Of a DNA stretch of 60,612 nucleotides, positions 6,878 to 56,351 are shown piece after piece. The stretch is from an uncultured Candidatus Poseidoniales archaeon (GTDB lineage: Archaea > Thermoplasmatota > Poseidoniia > Poseidoniales > CAYMED01), in NCBI GenBank assembly GCA_964389655.1, contig CAYMED010000017.1:1-60612 (forward strand). Direction: 5' to 3'. Under the pieces are notes generated by a model. That model searched no databases. It had not been told where the DNA came from and worked only from the letters and a program-made list of their open reading frames with translations. Numbering within the stretch: position 1 is the stretch's first letter; every line of letters starts with the position of its first letter. The position numbers and the translations under genes were made by a program.

Positions 6878-7042
6878 CTAAATTAAGCCAAAAACCTTGA
6901 AAAAGATGAATATCCCAGTTACTGCTGCAATAGCTGATGTGATTGTTCGCAGCAATTCCATCTTGTGATTGTGACGATCCAACCAACGCTCGAACCCCCC
7001 ACGGGCACCCTGCGGCTCTTCAAGGTCTTCTGTATCAGGCAT
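6878..7042 (-). CDS. Small hypothetical membrane protein
   Basis: MPDTEDLEE... with one C-terminal hydrophobic helix; co-directional with neighbours. Confidence 0.55.
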   Translation of the reverse strand: MPDTEDLEEPQGARGGFERWLDRHNHKMELLRTITSAIAAVTGIFIFFKVFGLI

Positions 7043-45256: not shown

Positions 45257-47680
45257 ATGCAATTTGGCCGTGGGATGTGTGCCATCTTACTAGTTCTGCC
45301 ACTTTTCATGCTTGTTCCCCAACCAGCATCCCCTTTCGCTGTTGGGGCAAACTCAGGGAATTTCCAAGTTGATCCCGCTGATTGTTCATCTACAGTTGGC
45401 GTTGATGCAATTCGGATCTCGCCCACTGGACATCGATCAATCACAAGTGACCAAACAATTGATTTTAATGCAATTCTCTTTGATGCAGGAGGTGGTGATG
45501 TTGAAGGAAAAGTCTACTGGTCATCGTCCTCAGGCTTAATTGATCGTGAAACTGGTTTTTTTGTACCTGCTGAAACTGGTTCTGTAACTGTTGCTGCATG
45601 TGCTGGAAATGAAGTCGAAATGACAACAGTTACTGTTCGGCAGGGTGCAACGATTTCTCTTGAAATCGAGAGTGAAATTCACTCGATCACAACAGACGAA
45701 ACACTTGATTTAGTACTCTGGGCAGTAGATAGCAAAGGGAACCGGGAGTTAGCTCTTATTCCAATGATGAATTGGGAGGTCGAAGGAGGCCTTCAGCCCA
45801 GTTGGAAAGCAACCTATTACCAATTCACACCTCGCTTTGTCGGAAATTGGAGCATCGTTGCAAAGTCTGCTGATTCGGCTGCCACAGCAACGTGGTGGGT
45901 CGATGTGTCGCCAGGCATAGCGCGAAGTGCTGTACTTCGGACAGATAGTGTTGAAATGACGACAGATGATTCAATTCGGCTTTGGATCGAACTTTCCGAT
46001 GCAAAAGGGAACATTTGGCCCGCAGAGGGCCGAATTACTGCAGTTGATTCAATTGCGCGAACTTGGGTCTCAAATGATGGAGACAACTGGATATTCTCAC
46101 CTACTCGAATCGGCTCTTGGATTCTTGAAGCAGTCTATGATGGATCTGCTGCTAGCAATGCACTTTTGGATACTGAAACGATCACAGTAGCCGCAGGGGA
46201 TCTTGCGAACCTTGCTATCGATGGAGAAGGAGAAATAGTGACTGTGGATCAGAAATTATCGCTAAACCCTGTGTTTACAGACCAGCATGGAAACGAGGTT
46301 GTACCCCGGAATGTGTTATGGATCGTAGATGGGGCTGACATGTCCTCCGAACTTAATGCCAATGCGTGGAGATTAGCGCAAAGTTCTGCAGGAGCGCACA
46401 CCGTGATTGCCTCTGCAGAAGGCCGTGTTGCAAGAATTAGTTATGAGGTGACTCCAGGTACATGTGCCGATATTGATACATCACTCGACCGTGTTCTGAG
46501 AATAGAAGCAGGAATGGATGTACCTTTCATTGTAAGTTGCACTGATACTCATGGAAACAAGTATCCTGTAGAAGTTAATTGGGAAGGTTCGCCAAATGCG
46601 GTAGAGATCACACCAGATGAGGCTGGAGGCTTAGGTGCATTCCAACTCCGTGGAATCAAGGTTGGGGAACATCAACTTACTATGATTGCTGATGACCGTG
46701 AAGAAACGTTTTTTGTTACTGTTCTCGCTTCTAGCCTTGCCAAGCTCAATGTCGTCCATGACACAGACGCGAATCAAGGAGATCAATTCACATTTACAGT
46801 ACATGGAGAAGATGCATGGGGGAACTCAGTCCCTGTGAACGAATCATCCCTTGTGGTCGAGACTTCAATTGGGGAGGTCAGTGCACCGAATGAAGGGGAA
46901 TTTACAGTACTTGCAGAGTATGATGGAACACAACAACTCATCGTGGTCCAGTCAGGTGATATCACAGAACTAATCTATGTAGATATACGACCAAACCTCT
47001 TCGAAGGGAAATTTGGTTCCTCTGAGAATGTTCTCGTTGGTGTCATAGGAGGGAATTCATTTTTGCTCCTAGGTGCACTTCTTGTTCTTCTCTATGTAAG
47101 CCGGCTTGCTCCTGTGCGGATCGAAGATCTAGAAGCGGAAGACGAAATAAGTGCAGCCATATCCTCGAACCAGAACAACCAATATAGCAATATAGCCGGA
47201 AATGAGTATGTTGGACCACCTAGTCCGCCTGTATCCCCACCGCCATCTTTGCCAGCAGCATGGAAAGCAGCTGTTGACCCATACGCTTGGTCTGCTGCTG
47301 CACCCGAAAATTCACCTACCGATCTCGCAATTGCTTCCGCATCATTGCTCGGAGAAAAACAACAGTCAGACCCCTACGGAGCTGCTGCTGCTGCAAGTTT
47401 GTTGGTTCCAACTACTTCGAATATAGTTGACACTCCTGCCGCTCAAAGTGTTCAAAATCAGGTGACATCACCACCTCTCGAGGAAAAGCAGCCGCCAATA
47501 TCTGAAACAAAGCCTCCTGCTGGAAATGTAACAACCAACCCGCTCCCAACAGACCCAACAGGAGCGGCAATGAGGGCAGTTCCTGGAACTGTAGCCGGGA
47601 AAACGGGATGGTACCTAGGCACAGATGGAATGCCGAAATACATGGCGTGGGAATCTGGCGAATGGAAACTCCGTTCATGA
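45257..47680 (+). CDS. Ig-like repeat surface protein, single TM, Pro-rich cytoplasmic tail
   Basis: Recurring D.xGN motif (DSKGN, DAKGN, DQHGN, DTHGN, DAWGN); signal peptide. Confidence 0.7.
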   Translation: MQFGRGMCAILLVLPLFMLVPQPASPFAVGANSGNFQVDPADCSSTVGVDAIRISPTGHRSITSDQTIDFNAILFDAGGGDVEGKVYWSSSSGLIDRETGFFVPAETGSVTVAACAGNEVEMTTVTVRQGATISLEIESEIHSITTDETLDLVLWAVDSKGNRELALIPMMNWEVEGGLQPSWKATYYQFTPRFVGNWSIVAKSADSAATATWWVDVSPGIARSAVLRTDSVEMTTDDSIRLWIELSDAKGNIWPAEGRITAVDSIARTWVSNDGDNWIFSPTRIGSWILEAVYDGSAASNALLDTETITVAAGDLANLAIDGEGEIVTVDQKLSLNPVFTDQHGNEVVPRNVLWIVDGADMSSELNANAWRLAQSSAGAHTVIASAEGRVARISYEVTPGTCADIDTSLDRVLRIEAGMDVPFIVSCTDTHGNKYPVEVNWEGSPNAVEITPDEAGGLGAFQLRGIKVGEHQLTMIADDREETFFVTVLASSLAKLNVVHDTDANQGDQFTFTVHGEDAWGNSVPVNESSLVVETSIGEVSAPNEGEFTVLAEYDGTQQLIVVQSGDITELIYVDIRPNLFEGKFGSSENVLVGVIGGNSFLLLGALLVLLYVSRLAPVRIEDLEAEDEISAAISSNQNNQYSNIAGNEYVGPPSPPVSPPPSLPAAWKAAVDPYAWSAAAPENSPTDLAIASASLLGEKQQSDPYGAAAAASLLVPTTSNIVDTPAAQSVQNQVTSPPLEEKQPPISETKPPAGNVTTNPLPTDPTGAAMRAVPGTVAGKTGWYLGTDGMPKYMAWESGEWKLRS

Positions 47681-47731: not shown

Positions 47732-49456
47732 GTGGAGGTAGTTGAAGAAGGCGACGAGCCCGTAGAAACAGCCGCTTCGAGAGATTTCCCTTCGATACCT
47801 CCACGTATTCTCTGGGCCATGTTAATTCTTGGAATTCTTCTCCGCCTCATCTCATTCGCATTTGCGACAATCGGCGTCGATGCTCATGTTCACATTGCAT
47901 ATGCATCAAGCCTTGCGCATGAAGGGAATACGGAGTTAGAATGGGGACCAATCAATAACTATTGGAATCACTCAGCATCACATCCAAATTCAACTTCAGA
48001 AGGAGTAGGTAATCGATACATATTGTGGCACGCATATCTTGCCACGCTGGGTTCATTAGGTGGTTGGAATGAAACCACTTTCAAAGTTGCGAGCTTGTTC
48101 CATTCGGCACTCTTCCTAGGCACTGTGTGGGTAGCAACTCAGCGGCGATATGGCCGCAATGCAGCATTGCAAGTCACCGCAATTGCGAGTTGCCATCAAT
48201 TGCTAATTCTAGTCGCTGTTCAATCCTATCAAGAAGAGATCTTAGCCACGATAATGGTGGGAGCTGTCTGGTCATTTTTAGCTGCGGAGGAGCAGCGAAA
48301 AGAGGGCACACGACCGACTTGGATTCTAGTTACTTCCCTTTGTACTATTGCATTTATTTTTATCAAAGGGATGGGAATTTACTTGTTGCTCGCATTGGCC
48401 TTAATTGGACTAATATGGTTCTTTGTCATCACCAAACCAAATTCAAGGGCGTTGGATTTTCTTCGGCGGCGAAAATGGATTGCTATTGGATACGCAGTCC
48501 TGCTTTTGTGGGGGGCAATGCTTGTTGCTGGGTTCTTTGATATCACACCTGTATGGCATCGATTGAAGATGAATCCCACGATGTTTGTGCTAGCATTCTT
48601 TCTCTCAATAATTGCTTACATGTTGTGGTGGGGACTGATGTCATTCATTCTTCTCCCTCACTTACCAGAGATGCTACGTAGGCTGACAAAAACGCACAGC
48701 CCAATATCGGTGATTCATCTGAGTATGATCACAATCATCCCCTTAGCATTCATCATTCTGACAAACGCAGGATTATGGACACATGAAGCGGGGATTTTGG
48801 ATGTGGGGTTGTTCGTATTCGATGACCCACGCACTGAACGGCCTTTCGGGGGATGGTCAAATGGCCGATATCTGACAATCATGCTAGTGCCCGCTTGGTG
48901 GCTTCTATTGGAATGCCGAAAGTATGCAATTGAAGGAGATGATGATGATATCGAGAAATTAGTTCAGCCGTTCAAGAGCATTGCTAAGTCCAACCAAAAT
49001 GGTGCTTTTTGGGTTGGTTCAATGTGGGTCCTTGTCATTGCTACAATGCTAACGGCATTGATTCCACCTGCTTTTTTCATTGCGCATCACCATCCTGTTG
49101 AAGCATCTAAGGCTATGGGAGAAGTTCTAGAAGATGGAGAAGAATTTCTTGTGATTACTTACCCAAGACAGAACCACCACCGCTTGTATCAACTCCGACT
49201 AGGTATCGACCCTGATGACTCACGAAACATCATGGGCCATTGGAGAGACAATGAAGCACCGTGGGCATCTGAAATTGAAGACTGTCTAATTCCTGAATAT
49301 GCAGGAGACATACGTAGCGTAGATTGGATTGCAATTTGGAAAGATGTTCCTGCGCTAAATGTCAGTGGATATGTAATCCGAGATATAGGCATGCCAGAAG
49401 GATGGACTGTAATGGAACGAACAGGAAGTCCTACGTGTCCTCCAATCTCGAGTTAG
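47732..49456 (+). CDS. GT-C fold (ArnT/PMT-like) membrane glycosyltransferase
   Basis: N-terminal TM + acidic loop (VDAHVH), many TMs, GRYL..LVP, soluble C-terminal domain. Confidence 0.55.
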   Translation: MEVVEEGDEPVETAASRDFPSIPPRILWAMLILGILLRLISFAFATIGVDAHVHIAYASSLAHEGNTELEWGPINNYWNHSASHPNSTSEGVGNRYILWHAYLATLGSLGGWNETTFKVASLFHSALFLGTVWVATQRRYGRNAALQVTAIASCHQLLILVAVQSYQEEILATIMVGAVWSFLAAEEQRKEGTRPTWILVTSLCTIAFIFIKGMGIYLLLALALIGLIWFFVITKPNSRALDFLRRRKWIAIGYAVLLLWGAMLVAGFFDITPVWHRLKMNPTMFVLAFFLSIIAYMLWWGLMSFILLPHLPEMLRRLTKTHSPISVIHLSMITIIPLAFIILTNAGLWTHEAGILDVGLFVFDDPRTERPFGGWSNGRYLTIMLVPAWWLLLECRKYAIEGDDDDIEKLVQPFKSIAKSNQNGAFWVGSMWVLVIATMLTALIPPAFFIAHHHPVEASKAMGEVLEDGEEFLVITYPRQNHHRLYQLRLGIDPDDSRNIMGHWRDNEAPWASEIEDCLIPEYAGDIRSVDWIAIWKDVPALNVSGYVIRDIGMPEGWTVMERTGSPTCPPISS

Positions 49457-50826
49457 AGAGGGCGCTTTGCGAGAACTTTCAGTTCAACTGCAATCGGGGT
49501 GGGTAGGGCTCCAACTTCGATCGTCGTTCTAGTAGGGGCAATCGCGCCCAACCTTTTGCCATAGACTTCATTGAATCCAGAGAAATCACGATCCATATCA
49601 ACAAGGAATGCTGTGATATCAACGACATCACCTAAACTGGCACCTGCTGATTCAAGAATGTGTTGCACATTGTCAATGCAAGCATCTGTTTGAGCACGTA
49701 TATCGTAATTTCCAGCACGACCATCTGGGCCCCATCGAGGCCCCCCCGGAATAGTATCTGAACCTGATTGACGAGGACCTACGCCTGAAAGAAGAATTAG
49801 GTCCCCAAAATGGCGAGCATGCGGGTAGGCACCCACAGGTACTGGTGCTGCATCTGAATGGACAACATCTCCATTTTTAGATTCTAAAGAGAGAGGAGGG
49901 TTTTGTTCAGTAGAGTCAGCCTCAGCAAGGACTTCTCGGTCGCCCGACCACACCTCAATTTCATCTTCATCATATTCCTTCATTCCAGTGCCTGCTTCAG
50001 ATGGCCAGAGGCTAACTACTGCGGCGCCAGTTCCGTGAATAGGGGCATAAGCATGGACATGACCTTCATACGAATTAGTAGCGCCACATAACGCCGATAA
50101 GAACCAAGCCGGTTTGAAGTTGACAACTTTGGGAACTCGGACTTGTTTGTGTATCTCTCGTGAGAGTTGTGCTACATCTTCAAGGCGACCATCTGCTAGA
50201 AATTCAAGGATTTTCTGATTCCATTCCTCATCTTTCGCCGAGTGAATGCGGTCATCTATGGCATTGATCGGGTCTGTAAAAAAGCGATTTGAGAGAGACA
50301 TTACAGCAACCCCTACTGCCGTTTTCCCCTGAGATTTCAATGTATCAAGACAAGACTTCGCTAGTACTGTTGTCTCTGCGCGATCAGCATATATGTTCGA
50401 AGAGACGATGACTGCGGGAATCTCCTTGTTAGGAGTCAGTAATTCCAGTGCGATTACAGAACCAGTATCAATTGGAAAGCCATGGTAGTCAACTGTTCGA
50501 GAGATTAAACCCCGGCCTTTTGCAGCAAGATGCCAAGCATGAGCAAAATCAGCATCAATACGGAGCTTGTATGGAACTGAACCGAGTGCGTGGAAGTCTG
50601 GGTCAACGAGTACCCAGTCCGGTTCTGGTCTTGCTTGAATTTGATGGCCAATAATTGAGGGCCACAGGGTGCTGTAAATGATGAGGATATCTGGAGAGGA
50701 AGCATGTATTCTTTCTGCTGCTTCAGCATATCCATCCGCTAGAGATTTCCATCCAGGATTCTCACTGGGACACAAGACAAGATGAGGGTGGGGGGGGGCA
50801 ATAAGGCCACCGAGAATGTTACTCAT
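49453..50826 (-). CDS. amnA: Fusion: 2-aminophenol 1,6-dioxygenase alpha subunit + RidA-family 2-aminomuconate deaminase-like domain
   Basis: YSTLW, VDYHGFPIDTG, DRI..KDEEWN, GTGAAV (alpha subunit); acidic linker; PVGAYPHA, SGVGP, FNEVY, PTRTT, LPTPIAVELK (RidA). Confidence 0.85.
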   Translation of the reverse strand: MSNILGGLIAPPHPHLVLCPSENPGWKSLADGYAEAAERIHASSPDILIIYSTLWPSIIGHQIQARPEPDWVLVDPDFHALGSVPYKLRIDADFAHAWHLAAKGRGLISRTVDYHGFPIDTGSVIALELLTPNKEIPAVIVSSNIYADRAETTVLAKSCLDTLKSQGKTAVGVAVMSLSNRFFTDPINAIDDRIHSAKDEEWNQKILEFLADGRLEDVAQLSREIHKQVRVPKVVNFKPAWFLSALCGATNSYEGHVHAYAPIHGTGAAVVSLWPSEAGTGMKEYDEDEIEVWSGDREVLAEADSTEQNPPLSLESKNGDVVHSDAAPVPVGAYPHARHFGDLILLSGVGPRQSGSDTIPGGPRWGPDGRAGNYDIRAQTDACIDNVQHILESAGASLGDVVDITAFLVDMDRDFSGFNEVYGKRLGAIAPTRTTIEVGALPTPIAVELKVLAKRPL

Positions 50827-51713
50827 TCAGACACCTCAAGGTCCCAACTAACTACTGCATTTCCAGTTCCAATAACCGTCCCATATGCGTGCAGTTCTCC
50901 AGGGATAGTTGGCATCCCCATTGCACCCATCAACCAAGTCATGGCACCTCCATCTGTTTCTGCAACTGCATGGTCTGTAAATTCAGGCATGATATCAACT
51001 ATCTCTTGTGATTTCCCACCTTTGATTAATTCGATCATGCGCATGTCCCAAAGGTATTGATGATGATTATTGATGAATTCATGGCTCATATCCTCAGGTA
51101 TGGGGGGTTCAGTTACAAAATGACGATGCGAAAGGGAATTTGAAGCAAGTAATAATGCTCTTTTACCCGACTTTTGGATGGCCCTAGTCGTTGCACGGCC
51201 TAGAGCCAGCATCTGTTCTTGCATTACTTCAACTGAATAATAGGCTGCCGAGCGAAAACTCGAGAGACAGACGATAGGTATGTCCCACTCTGGATTCACA
51301 AGATGGCAAGAGGTAATAGTCCCATAATCGACGCGAAATTCGGGATTTTTCATCAATTGTGTAACAAGCCCATCAGAACCCGCCTCTGCGTGGATCGATT
51401 CTGCAAGGCCCACATCAACTTCAAGGTCATAGTGAAAGCGAAATAAATTCGGAAAAATCGGATCCACCGAAAGGGATTGAAACCGTTCACAAGCAAGGAT
51501 GTGAGTCCCAACATATGTTTGCCAGTGAGGGGACAAGATTACGATGACATCAATTCCTTTTCCTTCCAATTGCTTTCGAAGACGTTCATACCCCCAGCGG
51601 AGAACTTCCCATCCACATTCTGCTGTAGGTTCATTTTGGGGGGGATTTTCAGCATAAACGAGGTGAGGGGGGTGAGGTGCAAGTGCGCCCATCACAACGC
51701 TACCTTGACCCAC
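50823..51713 (-). CDS. amnB: 2-aminophenol 1,6-dioxygenase beta (catalytic) subunit, LigB superfamily
   Basis: LAPHPPHLVY.ENPPQNEP, GWEVLRW.YER, SPHW, SVDPIFP, FRVDYGTIT, ASN.LSH, PEDMS.E, YGTVIGTGNAV; start GTG 51713 or ATG 51692. Confidence 0.92.
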   Translation of the reverse strand: MGQGSVVMGALAPHPPHLVYAENPPQNEPTAECGWEVLRWGYERLRKQLEGKGIDVIVILSPHWQTYVGTHILACERFQSLSVDPIFPNLFRFHYDLEVDVGLAESIHAEAGSDGLVTQLMKNPEFRVDYGTITSCHLVNPEWDIPIVCLSSFRSAAYYSVEVMQEQMLALGRATTRAIQKSGKRALLLASNSLSHRHFVTEPPIPEDMSHEFINNHHQYLWDMRMIELIKGGKSQEIVDIMPEFTDHAVAETDGGAMTWLMGAMGMPTIPGELHAYGTVIGTGNAVVSWDLEVSE

Positions 51714-51794
51714 ATGAGGGGGTACGCCTTCTATCGATTGAAGTCTTCGGCTACTAGAGATAGGAATGATGTGCAAGCCCGAAGTCGCCCATTT

Positions 51795-52247
51795 ATGGAG
51801 GAGAGCGAAGGGCCTGTGATCCCACCTCCTGTGGAAGTCGGTCGCTTTCGCCCAGTTGCCATTCCATCCCTCATAGGGATTGGTGCTGGAATCACAGCAT
51901 CCATAGCAATCCAGAATGGATTTGCAATCGGCCTCGGCACACTAGATGAACTCATTATTGGTATTTTTCTTTGTGCAGCAGGCCTCTCATTAGCCGCATT
52001 ATGGGAAGTTGGAAGAAGTCGGAGCTGGGAAATTTGGCTCGGTCTCATACCACCATTTGTTTTGCTCTTATCTGCCATTTACGTGATTCCAATATGTGGG
52101 ATCTCATTAGCAGTCACTGTTTGGGCAGGGCTATCTTTGGCATGGGCTGAGCAACGACTTCCCCCCTTCCGGCTCGGAATTTGGTGGGGTATGGGAGGAA
52201 CTTGTGGGGTTATTTCGGGGTCAGTTTTAGCTGCATTGATCACCTAA
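51795..52247 (+). CDS. Hypothetical membrane protein
   Basis: About 5 hydrophobic helices; start ATG 51795. Confidence 0.6.
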   Translation: MEESEGPVIPPPVEVGRFRPVAIPSLIGIGAGITASIAIQNGFAIGLGTLDELIIGIFLCAAGLSLAALWEVGRSRSWEIWLGLIPPFVLLLSAIYVIPICGISLAVTVWAGLSLAWAEQRLPPFRLGIWWGMGGTCGVISGSVLAALIT

Positions 52248-52469
52248 TCAAGTGCCACCCATTTCATCTGCGACGAGAGCTAAAGAGACTTCATGACGAT
52301 GAAATGCCTCGTGACCGGCTAGAAAACCACCCGCCTCGCGTTTGGTACCTAGCATCTCTTCACCACATATTGCACAACATACTCGAACAATCTCAGCTTC
52401 GAGTTCCAATACCCCCTGTCGTTCAACTCGAACAATGGAGCCTTCTGCGATCTCATCATCTAAGGCCAT
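52248..52469 (-). CDS. Small putative Zn-finger protein
   Basis: CCAICG..GHEAFH (C2H2-like); co-directional with the ALDH. Confidence 0.55.
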   Translation of the reverse strand: MALDDEIAEGSIVRVERQGVLELEAEIVRVCCAICGEEMLGTKREAGGFLAGHEAFHRHEVSLALVADEMGGT

Positions 52470-52507
52470 GGACCCGGCGGTTGGACTCTAGAGTTGAAAC
52501 CATCGGA

Positions 52508-53968
52508 TCAAAATTGCTCATCGACTTGACAGATTGAGCGCACTTCGGAAAAGAATTCAAGTGCCCAACGTCCACCTTCTCGCCCCACGCCAGAGGCTTT
52601 TAGTCCTCCAAATGGAACTCGTAAATCTCGTTTCAGCCAGCCATTTATCCAAACGGTCCCAGAATGAAGAGAAATTGCAATTCGATTCGCTTTTTCAATA
52701 TCAGCAGACCAAACCCCCCCTGAAAGACCATATTGGGTTGCATTTGCTATCGAAATTACTTCTTCTTCAGAAGTAAATGGTGCCATGACGACAACGGGCC
52801 CAAATATTTCTTCCATATGGCAGCGATGATCAAGCGGAAGGGAATCAATTACAGTGGGTTCAAGAAAAGAACCCTCGTCAAAGGGTGCAGGAAGACTAGG
52901 TCGAGAGCCACCAGTTAGAATCCTTCCACCTGCTGATTTGGCGAGAGCAATATAATCCTCCACTTTAGCACGATGGTCTTGATTGATAAGGGCGCCAAGT
53001 TGTGTGTTAGAATTCAATGGATCACCAATCTTCATTTTTGAAACACGTTCACTGAATGCTAGAACAAGTAGATCATATGCATTTGATTCAATGAGCAAGC
53101 GGCTCCCGCAAAGGCATATTTGTCCTTGATTAAGGAAACTAGAGCGCACTAAACCATCTAGTGTATTTTCTATGCGCTCCGGTGTACAAGCATCTGCAAA
53201 AACAATGGTGGAATTTTTACCTCCAAGTTCCAAACTGGTTTTGGCAAATCGTCTTGCTGTGGCTGAGGCTACTCTCTTTCCAGTTTCAGTTCCACCAGTA
53301 AATGAAATGGCACCTACATCTTTGTGTTCGGTCAAAGCTTGTCCTGCTTGAGAACCTAACCCATGCACCATATTCAGCACACCTGCTGGCAAGATAGCTG
53401 AGCTTATTTCAGCAAGCAGGTTTGCAGTCATTGGAGTCAGTTCACTGGGTTTACAAACAACGGTATTTCCCATCGCCAAGGCTGGAGCGACTTTCCATGA
53501 AAGGAGGTAAAGCGGGAGATTCCAAGGACTGATCAGACCACAAATACCTACCGGGTCATAGACGGTTCGAGTACTTGCTCCTTCGATTTCAAATACTTGT
53601 CCACTAAATTCCCGTACCTGGTCTGCAAAGAATCGAAAATTTGCAACAGAGCGGGCAGCATCAACACTACGTGCTAGAGCAATTGGCTTTCCAGTATCTC
53701 GAGATTCAAGTTCTGCAATTTCTTCAGATCTATGCTCTAGTGCATCTGCTATTGCTTCAAGCATGTCTGCTCGTTCCGCAGGGGAACAAGCACCCCAACT
53801 TGGTTGAACGGCTTTCGCTTCCTCGACTGCGGCATCCACATCTACCTTTGTTGATGATGGAATTCTAGCAAGAAGATCACCCGTAGCGGGGTTATGATTT
53901 TCGAGCATCTCCCCGCTTTCGGAAGGGGCCCATCGGCCCCCGATGAAGTTGTATAGTTCCCGGCTCAT
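52508..53968 (-). CDS. Aldehyde dehydrogenase, 2-aminomuconate/hydroxymuconate semialdehyde dehydrogenase type (AmnC/ALDH8-like)
   Basis: ISPWNLPLYLLSWKVAPA, KPSELTP, FTGG, LELGGKN, NQGQICLCGSR, EEIFGP, RDLRVPFGG. Confidence 0.85.
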   Translation of the reverse strand: MSRELYNFIGGRWAPSESGEMLENHNPATGDLLARIPSSTKVDVDAAVEEAKAVQPSWGACSPAERADMLEAIADALEHRSEEIAELESRDTGKPIALARSVDAARSVANFRFFADQVREFSGQVFEIEGASTRTVYDPVGICGLISPWNLPLYLLSWKVAPALAMGNTVVCKPSELTPMTANLLAEISSAILPAGVLNMVHGLGSQAGQALTEHKDVGAISFTGGTETGKRVASATARRFAKTSLELGGKNSTIVFADACTPERIENTLDGLVRSSFLNQGQICLCGSRLLIESNAYDLLVLAFSERVSKMKIGDPLNSNTQLGALINQDHRAKVEDYIALAKSAGGRILTGGSRPSLPAPFDEGSFLEPTVIDSLPLDHRCHMEEIFGPVVVMAPFTSEEEVISIANATQYGLSGGVWSADIEKANRIAISLHSGTVWINGWLKRDLRVPFGGLKASGVGREGGRWALEFFSEVRSICQVDEQF

Positions 53969-54047
53969 GACGACTGATGACGCTCTTCGCGTTTCACCGC
54001 TTCGGCTACACGACAAGTTGACGAACATCTTTCCCCTCCCGCACCTT

Positions 54048-55259
54048 ATGAGCGGACGTGAGTTGAGACGCGAAACTGTGGCAATCCATTCTGGACTTGA
54101 GCCAGAAGTGACGACGGGGGCAATTCAGCCACCTATTTTTCAAACATCAACATATGCACAAAGCGGATTTGCTGAGCATAAGGGATACGAATACGCTCGC
54201 ACCTCAAATCCAACTCGAGAAGCACTTGAAACCGCACTCGCAGCGATAGAAGCGCCCGATGAAGAAAGGACTACTGAAGCGATTTGTTTCTCATCAGGCA
54301 TGGCTGCAATAAGCGCAATTGTAGATCTTCTCGATAGTGGGGATTCAATACTAACTGTAGATGACTTATACGGTGGAACGGTTCGATTCCTAAGGGATGT
54401 TGTCTCACGACGCGGGATTACAACACAATATAATCCAATGACTGAAGTCAACCAATGCACAAGCAAAGATGTGCTCGGTGAAGCTGTCAAGTTGTTTGAC
54501 CGCATTGGAACCGCTGCGACTAAAATGCTATGGGTTGAGACACCCACCAACCCACTATTGCGGATACATGACCTAGAAGCACTGTGCAATGCTGCAAAAA
54601 AACGGGGATGGACAACAGTCGTAGATAACACGTTTGCATCACCCATCTTACAGAACCCGCTTTCCTGTGGAGCTGACCTTGTTGTTCATTCAACGACAAA
54701 ATATGTTGGAGGACATTCGGATGTAATTGGTGGCGCTGTCATTACCGCTAATCCGGTGCTCGCTGAAAGAATTCGGTTCCTACAGAAAACAGTGGGGGCA
54801 ATTCCCGGCCCATGGGATTGCTTCCTTCTGCTTCGTGGTTTGCGAACCCTTCCTCTACGAATGGAGCGCCACTGCGAAAATGCATCTGAATTGGCACGGC
54901 GCTTAGAAGCGCATCCGAAAGTAACTTCGGTGATTTATCCGGGCCTCTCTTCCCACCCAGGACACGAAATAGCCACTCGCCAAATGAAAGGTTTTGGTGG
55001 AATGATCTCCGTTGAAGTCGAAGGGGGAGTGGAAGGTGCTCGGCGTTTTGCTAATAAATTGCGAATTTGGACGATTGCTGAGAGTCTTGGAGGGTTTGAA
55101 AGTTTACTCAACCATCCATGGACAATGACACATGCAAGCATTTCTGAAGAACAACGCATCAAGAATGGCCTCAAACCAGGACTTATGCGTTTTTCAGTTG
55201 GACTTGAACATGTGGATGACCTATGGAATGATTTGAATCAGGCCTTGGAGGCAATCTGA
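54048..55259 (+). CDS. Cystathionine gamma-lyase/synthase family PLP enzyme
   Basis: PPIFQTSTY, YARTSNPT, SSGMAA, ETPTNP, DNTFA, HSTTKYVGGHSD, ESLGG. Confidence 0.92.
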   Translation: MSGRELRRETVAIHSGLEPEVTTGAIQPPIFQTSTYAQSGFAEHKGYEYARTSNPTREALETALAAIEAPDEERTTEAICFSSGMAAISAIVDLLDSGDSILTVDDLYGGTVRFLRDVVSRRGITTQYNPMTEVNQCTSKDVLGEAVKLFDRIGTAATKMLWVETPTNPLLRIHDLEALCNAAKKRGWTTVVDNTFASPILQNPLSCGADLVVHSTTKYVGGHSDVIGGAVITANPVLAERIRFLQKTVGAIPGPWDCFLLLRGLRTLPLRMERHCENASELARRLEAHPKVTSVIYPGLSSHPGHEIATRQMKGFGGMISVEVEGGVEGARRFANKLRIWTIAESLGGFESLLNHPWTMTHASISEEQRIKNGLKPGLMRFSVGLEHVDDLWNDLNQALEAI

Positions 55260-56351
55260 TTAAGATCCATCTTTTGAATTCCATTCATCAACGTCGAAGT
55301 CATTCTCACGCAACCAATCATCATCGAAGATTTTGCCAAGGTAAAGCGTTCCTGCGTCTGGAAGAATCGCTACAACTCGTGCAATTTCCCCACGTGAATC
55401 GGATTCCTCTGCCAACTTAACAGCAATTGCAACAGCGCCACCACAAGATCCTCCAACTAACATCCCTTCTTCTCTTGCCAGTCGGCGCGTCCATCGAAAA
55501 CAGACCGCATCATTCACGCGACGAATTTCTGAGATTCGGCTGAAATCTGTAGCTGGAGGTATGAAGTCTTCACCGAATCCTTCAACTTTGTAAGTATGTG
55601 GCACACCTATCTTTCCTTCGTCAAACCACTGTTTGAGAATCGATCCTTCAGGATCAACTCCAACGATCATAGGCATATTCTTGCCATCACGTTTGGACAA
55701 TTCAGCAAACGATTCTGCACAACCTGAAATTGTACCACCAGTCCCCATTGTTGCGACAAAATGTGTAAGTTCTCCACATGTTTGTTGCCAAATTTCAGGA
55801 CCTGTTTGCACAATATGTGCCCTAGGGTTTGCTAGATTGCTATATTGATCAGGGTACCAAGCATTTGGAATGTCACGGGCCAAGCGAGATGCCACCTCGT
55901 AATATGAGCGAGGGTCTTCCTTCTCGACAGCAGTAGGGCAAACTTCGACTTGTGCACCCAATGCGCGCAATTGATTGATTTTGTCTTGGCTCATTTTATC
56001 GGGCATCGTAAATATACAACGATATCCGCGTTGAGCGGCTACCATCGCAAGCCCCATCCCTGTGTTTCCACTTGTTGCCTCGATGATTGTGCCCCCAGGC
56101 TTTAGCAAACCTTCACGTTCTGCTTCCAATACCATTTCAAGTCCAATTCGGTCCTTGATCGAGCCTCCGGGATTGCATCGTTCATATTTCACCCAAACTT
56201 CCGATTTTCTGAGGTGGGCAGTTAGGCGATTTAAGCGGATCAATGGGGTATTGCCAATTGCATCAACAATATCCGGATAGACCCCCACGTCACGACTCCA
56301 AACCATCAAACCGCCTGAAGCACAAGCAGCCCTTGATGGCTTCGTAGACAA
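55260..56351 (-). CDS. cbs: Cystathionine beta-synthase (short form, no regulatory domains) / cysteine synthase family
   Basis: NPGGSIKDR, EATSGNTGMGLA, PDKMS..K, CPT.V..EDPRSY, DQY.N..NP, YKVEG.GEDF. Confidence 0.85.
   Translation of the reverse strand: MSTKPSRAACASGGLMVWSRDVGVYPDIVDAIGNTPLIRLNRLTAHLRKSEVWVKYERCNPGGSIKDRIGLEMVLEAEREGLLKPGGTIIEATSGNTGMGLAMVAAQRGYRCIFTMPDKMSQDKINQLRALGAQVEVCPTAVEKEDPRSYYEVASRLARDIPNAWYPDQYSNLANPRAHIVQTGPEIWQQTCGELTHFVATMGTGGTISGCAESFAELSKRDGKNMPMIVGVDPEGSILKQWFDEGKIGVPHTYKVEGFGEDFIPPATDFSRISEIRRVNDAVCFRWTRRLAREEGMLVGGSCGGAVAIAVKLAEESDSRGEIARVVAILPDAGTLYLGKIFDDDWLRENDFDVDEWNSKDGS

Follow-up and report, generated by a model that had tools for sequence, protein, structure and literature searches.

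The 60,612-bp contig CAYMED010000017.1 (assembly GCA_964389655.1, an uncultured Candidatus Poseidoniales archaeon of Marine Group II, MGII), referred to below as the window, carries on its minus strand a 457-aa open reading frame (ORF), alpha-RidA (49453-50826), which joins a non-catalytic dioxygenase subunit to a RidA-type deaminase. According to the ORF listing and translation there is no stop within it, and its stop codon is 49453-49455; the uninterrupted frame proposed in a preceding sequence-only reading of the window therefore exists, and lies on the minus strand. Four segments can be told apart: a non-catalytic LigB alpha-subunit domain of the AmnA/CnbCa type (residues 1-272, 50011-50826), a conserved acidic C-terminal tail of the alpha clade (residues 273-300, 49927-50010; core GMKEYDEDEIEVWSGDREVL), a low-complexity variable spacer (residues 301-322, 49861-49926) and a RidA-family domain, a putative 2-aminomuconate deaminase similar to AmnE/AmnD (residues 323-457, 49456-49860). 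The gene for a catalytic beta subunit is located directly upstream, and a 2-aminomuconate 6-semialdehyde dehydrogenase-like gene about 0.8 kb further upstream, so the whole upper 2-aminophenol pathway (dioxygenase, semialdehyde dehydrogenase, deaminase) is encoded within 49453-53968.

Both domains score over the curated Pfam cut-offs: LigB covers residues 16-270 (E = 2.3e-10) and Ribonuc_L-PSP (PF01042) residues 326-453 (E = 1.8e-20). Among solved structures the alpha domain matches the alpha chains of two-subunit dioxygenases best (7txy_A, 8ihg_B, and 3vsg_A; E from 6e-41 to 6e-38), while beta chains score more weakly (E about 1e-23), placing it nearer to alpha than to beta subunits. A Foldseek search with the AlphaFold 2 (AF2) model gave template modelling (TM) scores of 0.85-0.88 to the same three alpha chains. 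In the alignment of the two subunits the iron ligands of beta, His13, His63, and Glu253 (motifs APH, SPHW, and VAE; beta residues are counted from its GTG start), correspond to Pro12, Leu54, and Lys232 of alpha, and the catalytic SHRHF motif of beta reads SNRFF. The sequence-only reading had noticed the loss of one metal histidine (YSTLW at residue 51, containing Leu54, instead of SPHW); this is correct, and in fact all three ligands and the catalytic histidine are replaced.

The RidA domain, searched alone against solved structures, finds the 2-aminomuconate deaminase AmnE (6izh) as its top match (E = 2.8e-23), with generic RidA proteins at 1e-18; in Foldseek it superimposes on 6izh with a TM score of 0.88 at 37% identity. 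The alignment with 6izh traverses the long Lp2 loop with just three gap positions, whereas generic RidA proteins need a gap of 13-14 residues. R433, located in the PTRTT motif at residue 431, aligns with Arg117 of AmnE and is invariant in 40 homologues, which bears out the earlier statement that the catalytic arginine is kept. M411 is the equivalent of Met96 of AmnE, and the Lp3 motif ALPTPIAVE is conserved. R370 aligns with Arg56 of AmnE, but the column is occupied by E, N, Q, A, or K in most fused homologues. An AmnE-like hexamer was for this reason rejected as a general feature of the family: as the Arg56-aligned arginine is present here but not across the family, a hexameric core cannot be assumed. 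The comparisons support reading alpha-RidA as an AmnA-type alpha subunit devoid of iron ligands and catalytic histidine, linked in frame to a RidA-type deaminase which retains its essential arginine. Since the genome holds another, stand-alone RidA on a different contig, the fused domain is a second, specialised copy.

In the AF2 model, built with 40 homologues, two confident domains are separated by a low-confidence connector (residues 286-318, predicted local distance difference test (pLDDT) score <50). With confidence so low in the tail, this monomer model carries no information on binding partners of the tail. The acidic linker of the sequence-only reading, the string EYDEDEIEVWSGDREVLAEADSTE, is indeed found at residues 284-307 (49906-49977), but it is not one element: its first part belongs to the conserved tail of alpha, and only its second part to the variable spacer. 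The tail motif of about 25 aa, G.KE[YF]DE[DE]DVE.[YF].G[DE]R.VL, reads GMKEYDEDEIEVWSGDREVL in the window. Mean column conservation over 55 fused sequences is 0.75 in the tail and 0.44 in the spacer, compared with 0.78 and 0.80 in the enzymatic domains, and G281, E284, D286, E287, G295, R297, V299, and L300 of the tail are invariant in 40 homologues. The stretch between the alpha and RidA matches varies from 42 to 118 aa across relatives. In every unfused relative examined (L052, L054, L056, L062, L072, L073 and the split forms of the MGIIb family described below) the alpha subunit terminates with the tail motif, while the solved AmnA/CnbCa alpha chains end at 271-279 aa, before the tail. Being present in unfused forms and absent from characterised alpha subunits, the motif is therefore a C-terminal tail of this particular alpha clade. 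The acidic tail is most simply taken for a docking element.

The single frame could in principle be an artefact of assembly or binning, such as a collapsed frameshift or a chimeric contig. The window does come from a metagenome-assembled genome (MAG) with an estimated contamination of 5.7%, and one relative, L055, has a frame change in the linker, possibly a sequencing error. However, Logan contigs of four further marine metagenome runs (two studies) match the gene region with two substitutions and zero indels. Two of the records (X2 record 1, 49300-50503; X4 record 10, 49844-50289) span the whole linker (49852-50010), for which the sequence-only reading had suggested a read-level check. The only other sampled genome of the genus (G001) has a 458-aa single open frame without stops at 64% identity, and the same frame is carried by dozens of independent genomes. 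Given independent contigs without indels and the open frame within the genus, an artefact is very unlikely, and we give this explanation next to no credence. As for L055 (CASICQ010000001, Poseidoniaceae; 6914-7002), it is the only MGIIa locus of the 80 related loci with a frame change in the linker; its nearest relative, L009, carries the fused form, and the change probably reflects a sequencing indel and no genuine split.

The fusion is neither rare nor peculiar to this genome, and is near-universal in the order as either a fused gene or a split pair. In a large protein collection, all of the best 120 protein clusters (440-504 aa) contained both Pfam domains. Most of them originate from Poseidoniales metagenomes, and automatic naming has labelled some as "2-aminomuconate deaminase", others as "2-aminophenol ... 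dioxygenase alpha subunit" or "Rid family hydrolase". In species-representative genomes a single uninterrupted frame was found in 54 of 80 related loci. Of the 201 genomes sampled from the order, 193 (about 96%) contain the alpha/RidA pair, including 60 of the 61 high-quality ones. Genomes of the MGIIa-like family (Poseidoniaceae, about 1.8-2.2 Mb) have open frames of about 457-540 aa, i.e., the fused form. In the MGIIb-like family (Thalassarchaeaceae, 1.3-1.9 Mb) the genes are mostly split, with an alpha frame of about 310 aa, and a minority is fused. The window belongs to a third family, of which only two genomes were sampled, both fused.

Fused genes also occur on long bacterial contigs, in Planctomycetota (540 kb), on a 6.9-Mb contig and in Myxococcota. 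Two further loci assigned to bacteria, L015 (NZEQ01000011, "Verrucomicrobiales") and L034 (CAXRAI010000064, "Salinimicrobium sp."), nest in MGIIa with near-zero branches and show the gene order typical of MGIIa; probably these contigs are archaeal and were misassigned to bacterial MAGs, and they were left out of the bacterial occurrences. In Bdellovibrionota RidA is found one gene further on, behind an Asparaginase_II-like gene (L076, L079, L080), and in some Myxococcota the RidA gene is located upstream. The separate RidA in the clusters of unfused bacterial operons (L052, L054, L073, L076, L077, L079, L080) is 51-62% identical to the fused domain, which indicates that the latter corresponds to the deaminase belonging to the cluster, as opposed to a housekeeping RidA.

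The sequence-only reading had named a stop in the linker of close relatives as evidence against the fusion. Stops do occur, though only in more distant relatives, where they separate a real overlapping gene pair and do not mark a broken gene. The MGIIb alpha gene ends just past the tail (…VLDKGM[I/N]). In L064 the RidA ATG overlaps the TAA stop of alpha (TAATG), and in L049 there is one in-frame TAG with a TTG start immediately after it, one point mutation away from fusion. A maximum-likelihood tree of the alpha domain (quick method, 81 rows, rooted on the unfused Bdellovibrionota) places the window on a long branch within the archaeal grouping (support 89). All MGIIa members are fused (support 99), MGIIb (support 100) comprises 13 split and four fused members, and the bacterial relatives are mostly fused, with at least six changes between the fused and the split state. 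On this tree the MGIIb split looks like a secondary fission, a reading that is sensitive to the choice of root and to deep branches with weak support.

So labile a junction raises the question of whether the fusion is a near-neutral accident, adjacent overlapping genes having been joined by stop loss, with the same function whether joined or not and with no special assembly or channelling. The ease with which the junction flips (L049, L064), the number of state changes, the coexistence of fused and split members in MGIIb and the freely varying length and sequence of the spacer all fit this view. Against it, the fused frame has been kept throughout one large family, in the family of the window and in several bacterial phyla. 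In MGIIb the split genes remain adjacent or overlapping and RidA often has a conserved N-terminal extension, suggesting continued association, and the conservation of the acidic tail speaks for an interaction surface that has been preserved. We regard a near-neutral origin as unlikely, though of the alternatives discussed here it deserves the most attention.

The extension just mentioned is a conserved N-terminal part of about 80 aa, found in the separate RidA genes of many MGIIb genomes (L057-L060, L064-L066, L068, L071, L074). It contains a run of acidic residues, the motif W.[SN]P.EVIDDLYDEYG and a hydrophobic stretch rich in Gly and Ala (…GAAAGAVVGGPVG.VAGSIVGKK…) which resembles a glycine-zipper or a membrane-associating segment. 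The same segment lies in frame in L061 and L070, as the linker (110-118 aa) of a fused protein.

The beta gene, located on the same strand (50823-51713), overlaps alpha-RidA in the sequence ATGA, which combines the beta stop and the alpha start. Its product, an AmnB/CnbCb-like catalytic subunit of 296 aa, was recognised by its solved relatives and motifs: the matches are full-length (3vsg_B, i.e., CnbCb, E = 2.7e-107; 8ihg_A, E = 1.3e-105), and the APHPPH, SPHW, SHRHF, and VAETD motifs are intact. The gene lies inside a 317-aa ORF with a TTG start, and translation most likely starts at the GTG which matches the N-terminus of CnbCb.

The aldehyde dehydrogenase (ALDH) gene (52508-53968, minus strand; Pfam Aldedh, E = 3e-160) has its probable start at Met21 of a 506-aa ORF and codes for an AmnC/NbaE-like protein. 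All of its seven best solved relatives are 2-aminomuconate 6-semialdehyde dehydrogenases (AMSDH; E from 2e-130 to 2e-122), with hydroxymuconic semialdehyde dehydrogenases behind (E about 1e-113). Its best NCBIfam model is TIGR03216 (2-hydroxymuconic semialdehyde dehydrogenase; 523 bits, under the cut-off). In 52 of 83 loci an ALDH gene of the AMSDH type is found close to those for the dioxygenase.

In characterised bacteria the order of reactions is dioxygenase, dehydrogenase, deaminase, and 2-aminomuconate semialdehyde, which cyclises to picolinate, is the substrate of the dehydrogenase (PMC3790839). By analogy with the bacterial amn pathway, the beta subunit and the alpha domain would open the ring of an o-aminophenol, giving a 2-aminomuconate-semialdehyde-type product. 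The separate ALDH would oxidise it to a 2-aminomuconate-type acid, and the tethered RidA domain would hydrolyse the enamine/imine of this acid, releasing ammonia and a 2-oxo-dicarboxylate. The sequence-only reading suggested that the fusion could hold together enzymes that handle an unstable intermediate, and pointed to the picolinate-forming one. This needs correcting: the fusion joins steps 1 and 3, while 2-aminomuconate semialdehyde is used by the separate ALDH (PMC3790839). Since the intermediate between the linked steps is consumed by a separate enzyme, fusion alone cannot protect the unstable product of step 1 if ALDH is not recruited as well.

The fused steps would become consecutive if RidA acted directly on what ring cleavage yields, as the imine tautomer of 2-aminomuconate semialdehyde, and removed the amino group before picolinate is formed, leaving a hydroxymuconate-type semialdehyde for ALDH to oxidise. 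This would provide a direct chemical rationale for the fusion. It agrees with TIGR03216 being the top model for ALDH, albeit below its cut-off, and with the general ability of RidA enzymes to hydrolyse enamine/imine species (PMC4433059). The nearest solved relatives of both proteins speak against it, since all seven of ALDH are 2-aminomuconate semialdehyde dehydrogenases, ahead of the hydroxymuconic ones, and that of the RidA domain is the 2-aminomuconate deaminase AmnE. The characterised order of reactions is also the opposite (PMC3790839). We consider such a shortcut distinctly improbable, more so than a near-neutral origin of the fusion.

The characterised dioxygenase is an alpha2beta2 tetramer, as the sequence-only reading assumed, and dimerises through beta (PMC10470539); the other assumption of that reading, that of a trimeric RidA, does not apply to stand-alone AmnE, which is a homohexamer (PMC6742747). 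RidA active sites are located between the subunits of a trimer, so that trimerisation is needed (PMC6742747). As the fused chain combines the three-fold contacts of RidA with the two-fold contacts of beta, an assembly larger than alpha2beta2 is to be expected, and a higher-order assembly is plausible. For instance, two RidA trimers could be bridged by three alpha2beta2 units, which would be geometrically possible with a flexible connector of 50 residues. Such a particle would hold the first and the third enzymes together, and might also recruit ALDH, a role for which the conserved acidic tail is the evident candidate.

Overall, alpha-RidA can be considered to be an iron-free alpha helper of a two-subunit LigB-type o-aminophenol dioxygenase which is continued, via an acidic tail and a disordered spacer, by an AmnD/AmnE-type RidA deaminase. 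We believe this explanation, taken as a whole and including the proposed order of reactions and assembly, to be probably right. Several points weigh against it. The fused activities are not consecutive steps. The covalent link is dispensable, as many MGIIb relatives have separate overlapping genes. R370, the Arg56 equivalent, is present here, but its column is not conserved in the family. Finally, no FAA_hydrolase-family enzyme that could take the product further along the classical route was found in the genome: the search for the lower pathway (4-oxalocrotonate decarboxylase, 2-keto-4-pentenoate hydratase) gave no PF01557 match in this 2.1-Mb genome (93% complete), while the same family was matched in 11 of 14 reference genomes used as a control. 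The family was not found in the conserved neighbourhoods of the module either.

The Asparaginase_II-family gene (PF06089; 56359-57498, minus strand; E = 5e-49) is another companion of the module, and its product is the sole PF06089 match in the genome. In 42 of 83 loci the dioxygenase genes have a member of this family no more than 6 kb away, and the compact bacterial operons contain one as well. Other companions in the 83 loci include an amino-acid permease (41 loci), a luciferase-like monooxygenase (17) and a short-chain dehydrogenase/reductase (SDR; 10). A PF04199 protein, scoring just below the NCBIfam cut-off for arylformamidase/kynurenine formamidase, is found near the module in 11 loci. 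In Planctomycetota and Myxococcota a single compact operon comprises SDR, monooxygenase, Asparaginase_II-like, ALDH, beta, alpha-RidA and formamidase-like genes.

Several other genes of the window surround the module. Two genes lie between ALDH and the Asparaginase_II-like gene, one of the cystathionine gamma-synthase/lyase family (53943-55259, plus strand) and one of the cystathionine beta-synthase/cysteine synthase family (55260-56351, minus strand); a Cys_Met_Meta_PP gene is found near the module in seven loci, mostly of MGIIb. Between ALDH and beta the opposite strand carries an ORF (51792-52247, plus strand) whose product of about 150 aa contains several hydrophobic segments and matches no Pfam family. 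Just upstream of beta, loci of MGIIa likewise have a small ORF on the opposite strand that lacks a Pfam match (a cluster of 23 loci, e.g., L005:3551-4042), the two being likened by position only. On the other side, two ORFs devoid of Pfam matches, 45257-47680 (plus strand, 807 aa) and 47732-49456 (plus strand, 574 aa), converge on alpha-RidA, the second of them ending 4 nt inside its stop region. Relatives of these two proteins adjoin the module in 35 loci.

The source of the substrate could be sought in tryptophan catabolism. A tryptophan 2,3-dioxygenase gene (PF03301, E = 7.6e-56) is present in the genome at G000:C3:55879-56889 (L092:8859-9956), flanked by unrelated genes on its contig; 195 of the 201 genomes sampled from the order have one. 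As the fusion and this dioxygenase are both near-universal (193 and 195 of 201), their phyletic correlation is uninformative. Kynureninase (TIGR01814) and the PF04199 formamidase gave no match in the genome, and the canonical kynurenine route was rejected as the source in spite of the presence of tryptophan 2,3-dioxygenase. The search for 3-hydroxyanthranilate dioxygenase was uninformative, its control having matched nowhere. The substrate is probably not the pollutant 2-aminophenol; a natural o-aminophenol handled by the conserved operon is more likely, and a tryptophan-derived one is a reasonable guess.

Going further, we speculate that an undescribed catabolic route may have beta, alpha-RidA and ALDH at its core, its substrate being a natural o-aminophenol that probably derives from tryptophan, e.g., a hydroxylated kynurenine. 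The monooxygenase, Asparaginase_II-like, SDR and arylformamidase-like partners would take part, kynureninase and the classical lower enzymes would be bypassed, and the route would be near-universal in MGII. Within it, alpha-RidA with its tail would scaffold a multi-enzyme particle preventing the ring-opened amines from cyclising to pyridine carboxylates. We offer this combination tentatively, as all of its parts being true together is rather doubtful. If it is true that the conserved operon represents an undescribed aromatic-amine pathway core to MGII archaea, the fusion would be of greater interest.

MGII archaea, which are uncultured, rank among the most abundant surface-ocean heterotrophs. 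The gene set implies, as a prediction, that they open aromatic amine rings and release ammonia. The fused/split polymorphism constitutes a natural experiment, which we read as a sign of physical cooperation between the deaminase and the inactive alpha subunit. It also makes it practicable to ask whether less of an unstable intermediate is lost when non-consecutive enzymes are tethered.

No paper that we found describes or characterises a LigB-RidA or AmnA-RidA fusion, in agreement with the sequence-only reading, which knew of none; the architecture is nevertheless visible in public databases, where, as mentioned, annotation is automatic. In the Rid family survey (PMC4433059) fusions are treated in general only, with no LigB-Rid fusion, and the AmnE and ARO microcompartment papers do not mention one. 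A literature search on aminophenol or kynurenine metabolism in MGII returned nothing relevant, and the major genomic and transcriptomic papers on MGII that we checked do not mention these genes in their main text. The fusion is real, unstudied as far as we could find, and built from two well-understood families which most likely work in it as they do elsewhere.

Among known systems, AmnAB and CnbCaCb (PDB 8IHG, 3VSG-3VSJ, 7TXY) share with the Poseidoniales locus a catalytic beta subunit with a His/His/Glu site and an iron-free paralogous alpha encoded by adjacent genes. They differ in that alpha is extended here by an acidic tail and an entire RidA domain, the host is an archaeon, and no classical lower pathway was found. 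AmnE of Pseudomonas sp. AP-3 (PDB 6IZH; AmnD in other strains) has the same long Lp2 loop, equivalents of Met96 and Arg117 and a hydrophobic Lp3, and is likewise encoded together with an aminophenol dioxygenase and an aminomuconate semialdehyde dehydrogenase. Unlike the domain described here, which forms the C-terminus of an alpha subunit, it is a free 142-aa protein forming a homohexamer held by Arg56, with an Arg56-Met96 contact; its substrate, 2-aminomuconate, is unstable and has to be made enzymatically (PMC6742747).

Further counterparts are the split pairs of MGIIb and the separate RidA genes of Bdellovibrionota and Myxococcota, which are orthologous (51-65% identity) and have the same tail and the same operon partners. 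In these forms a stop follows the tail, and RidA is translated from an overlapping or adjacent start or is encoded one gene on. Covalent linkage of RidA domains is also known from the tandem Rid fusions (3x-RidA), where it was read as fixing the oligomeric unit (PMC4433059). There, Rid is joined to Rid, while in alpha-RidA the partner of the single Rid domain is a subunit of a different enzyme from the same pathway.

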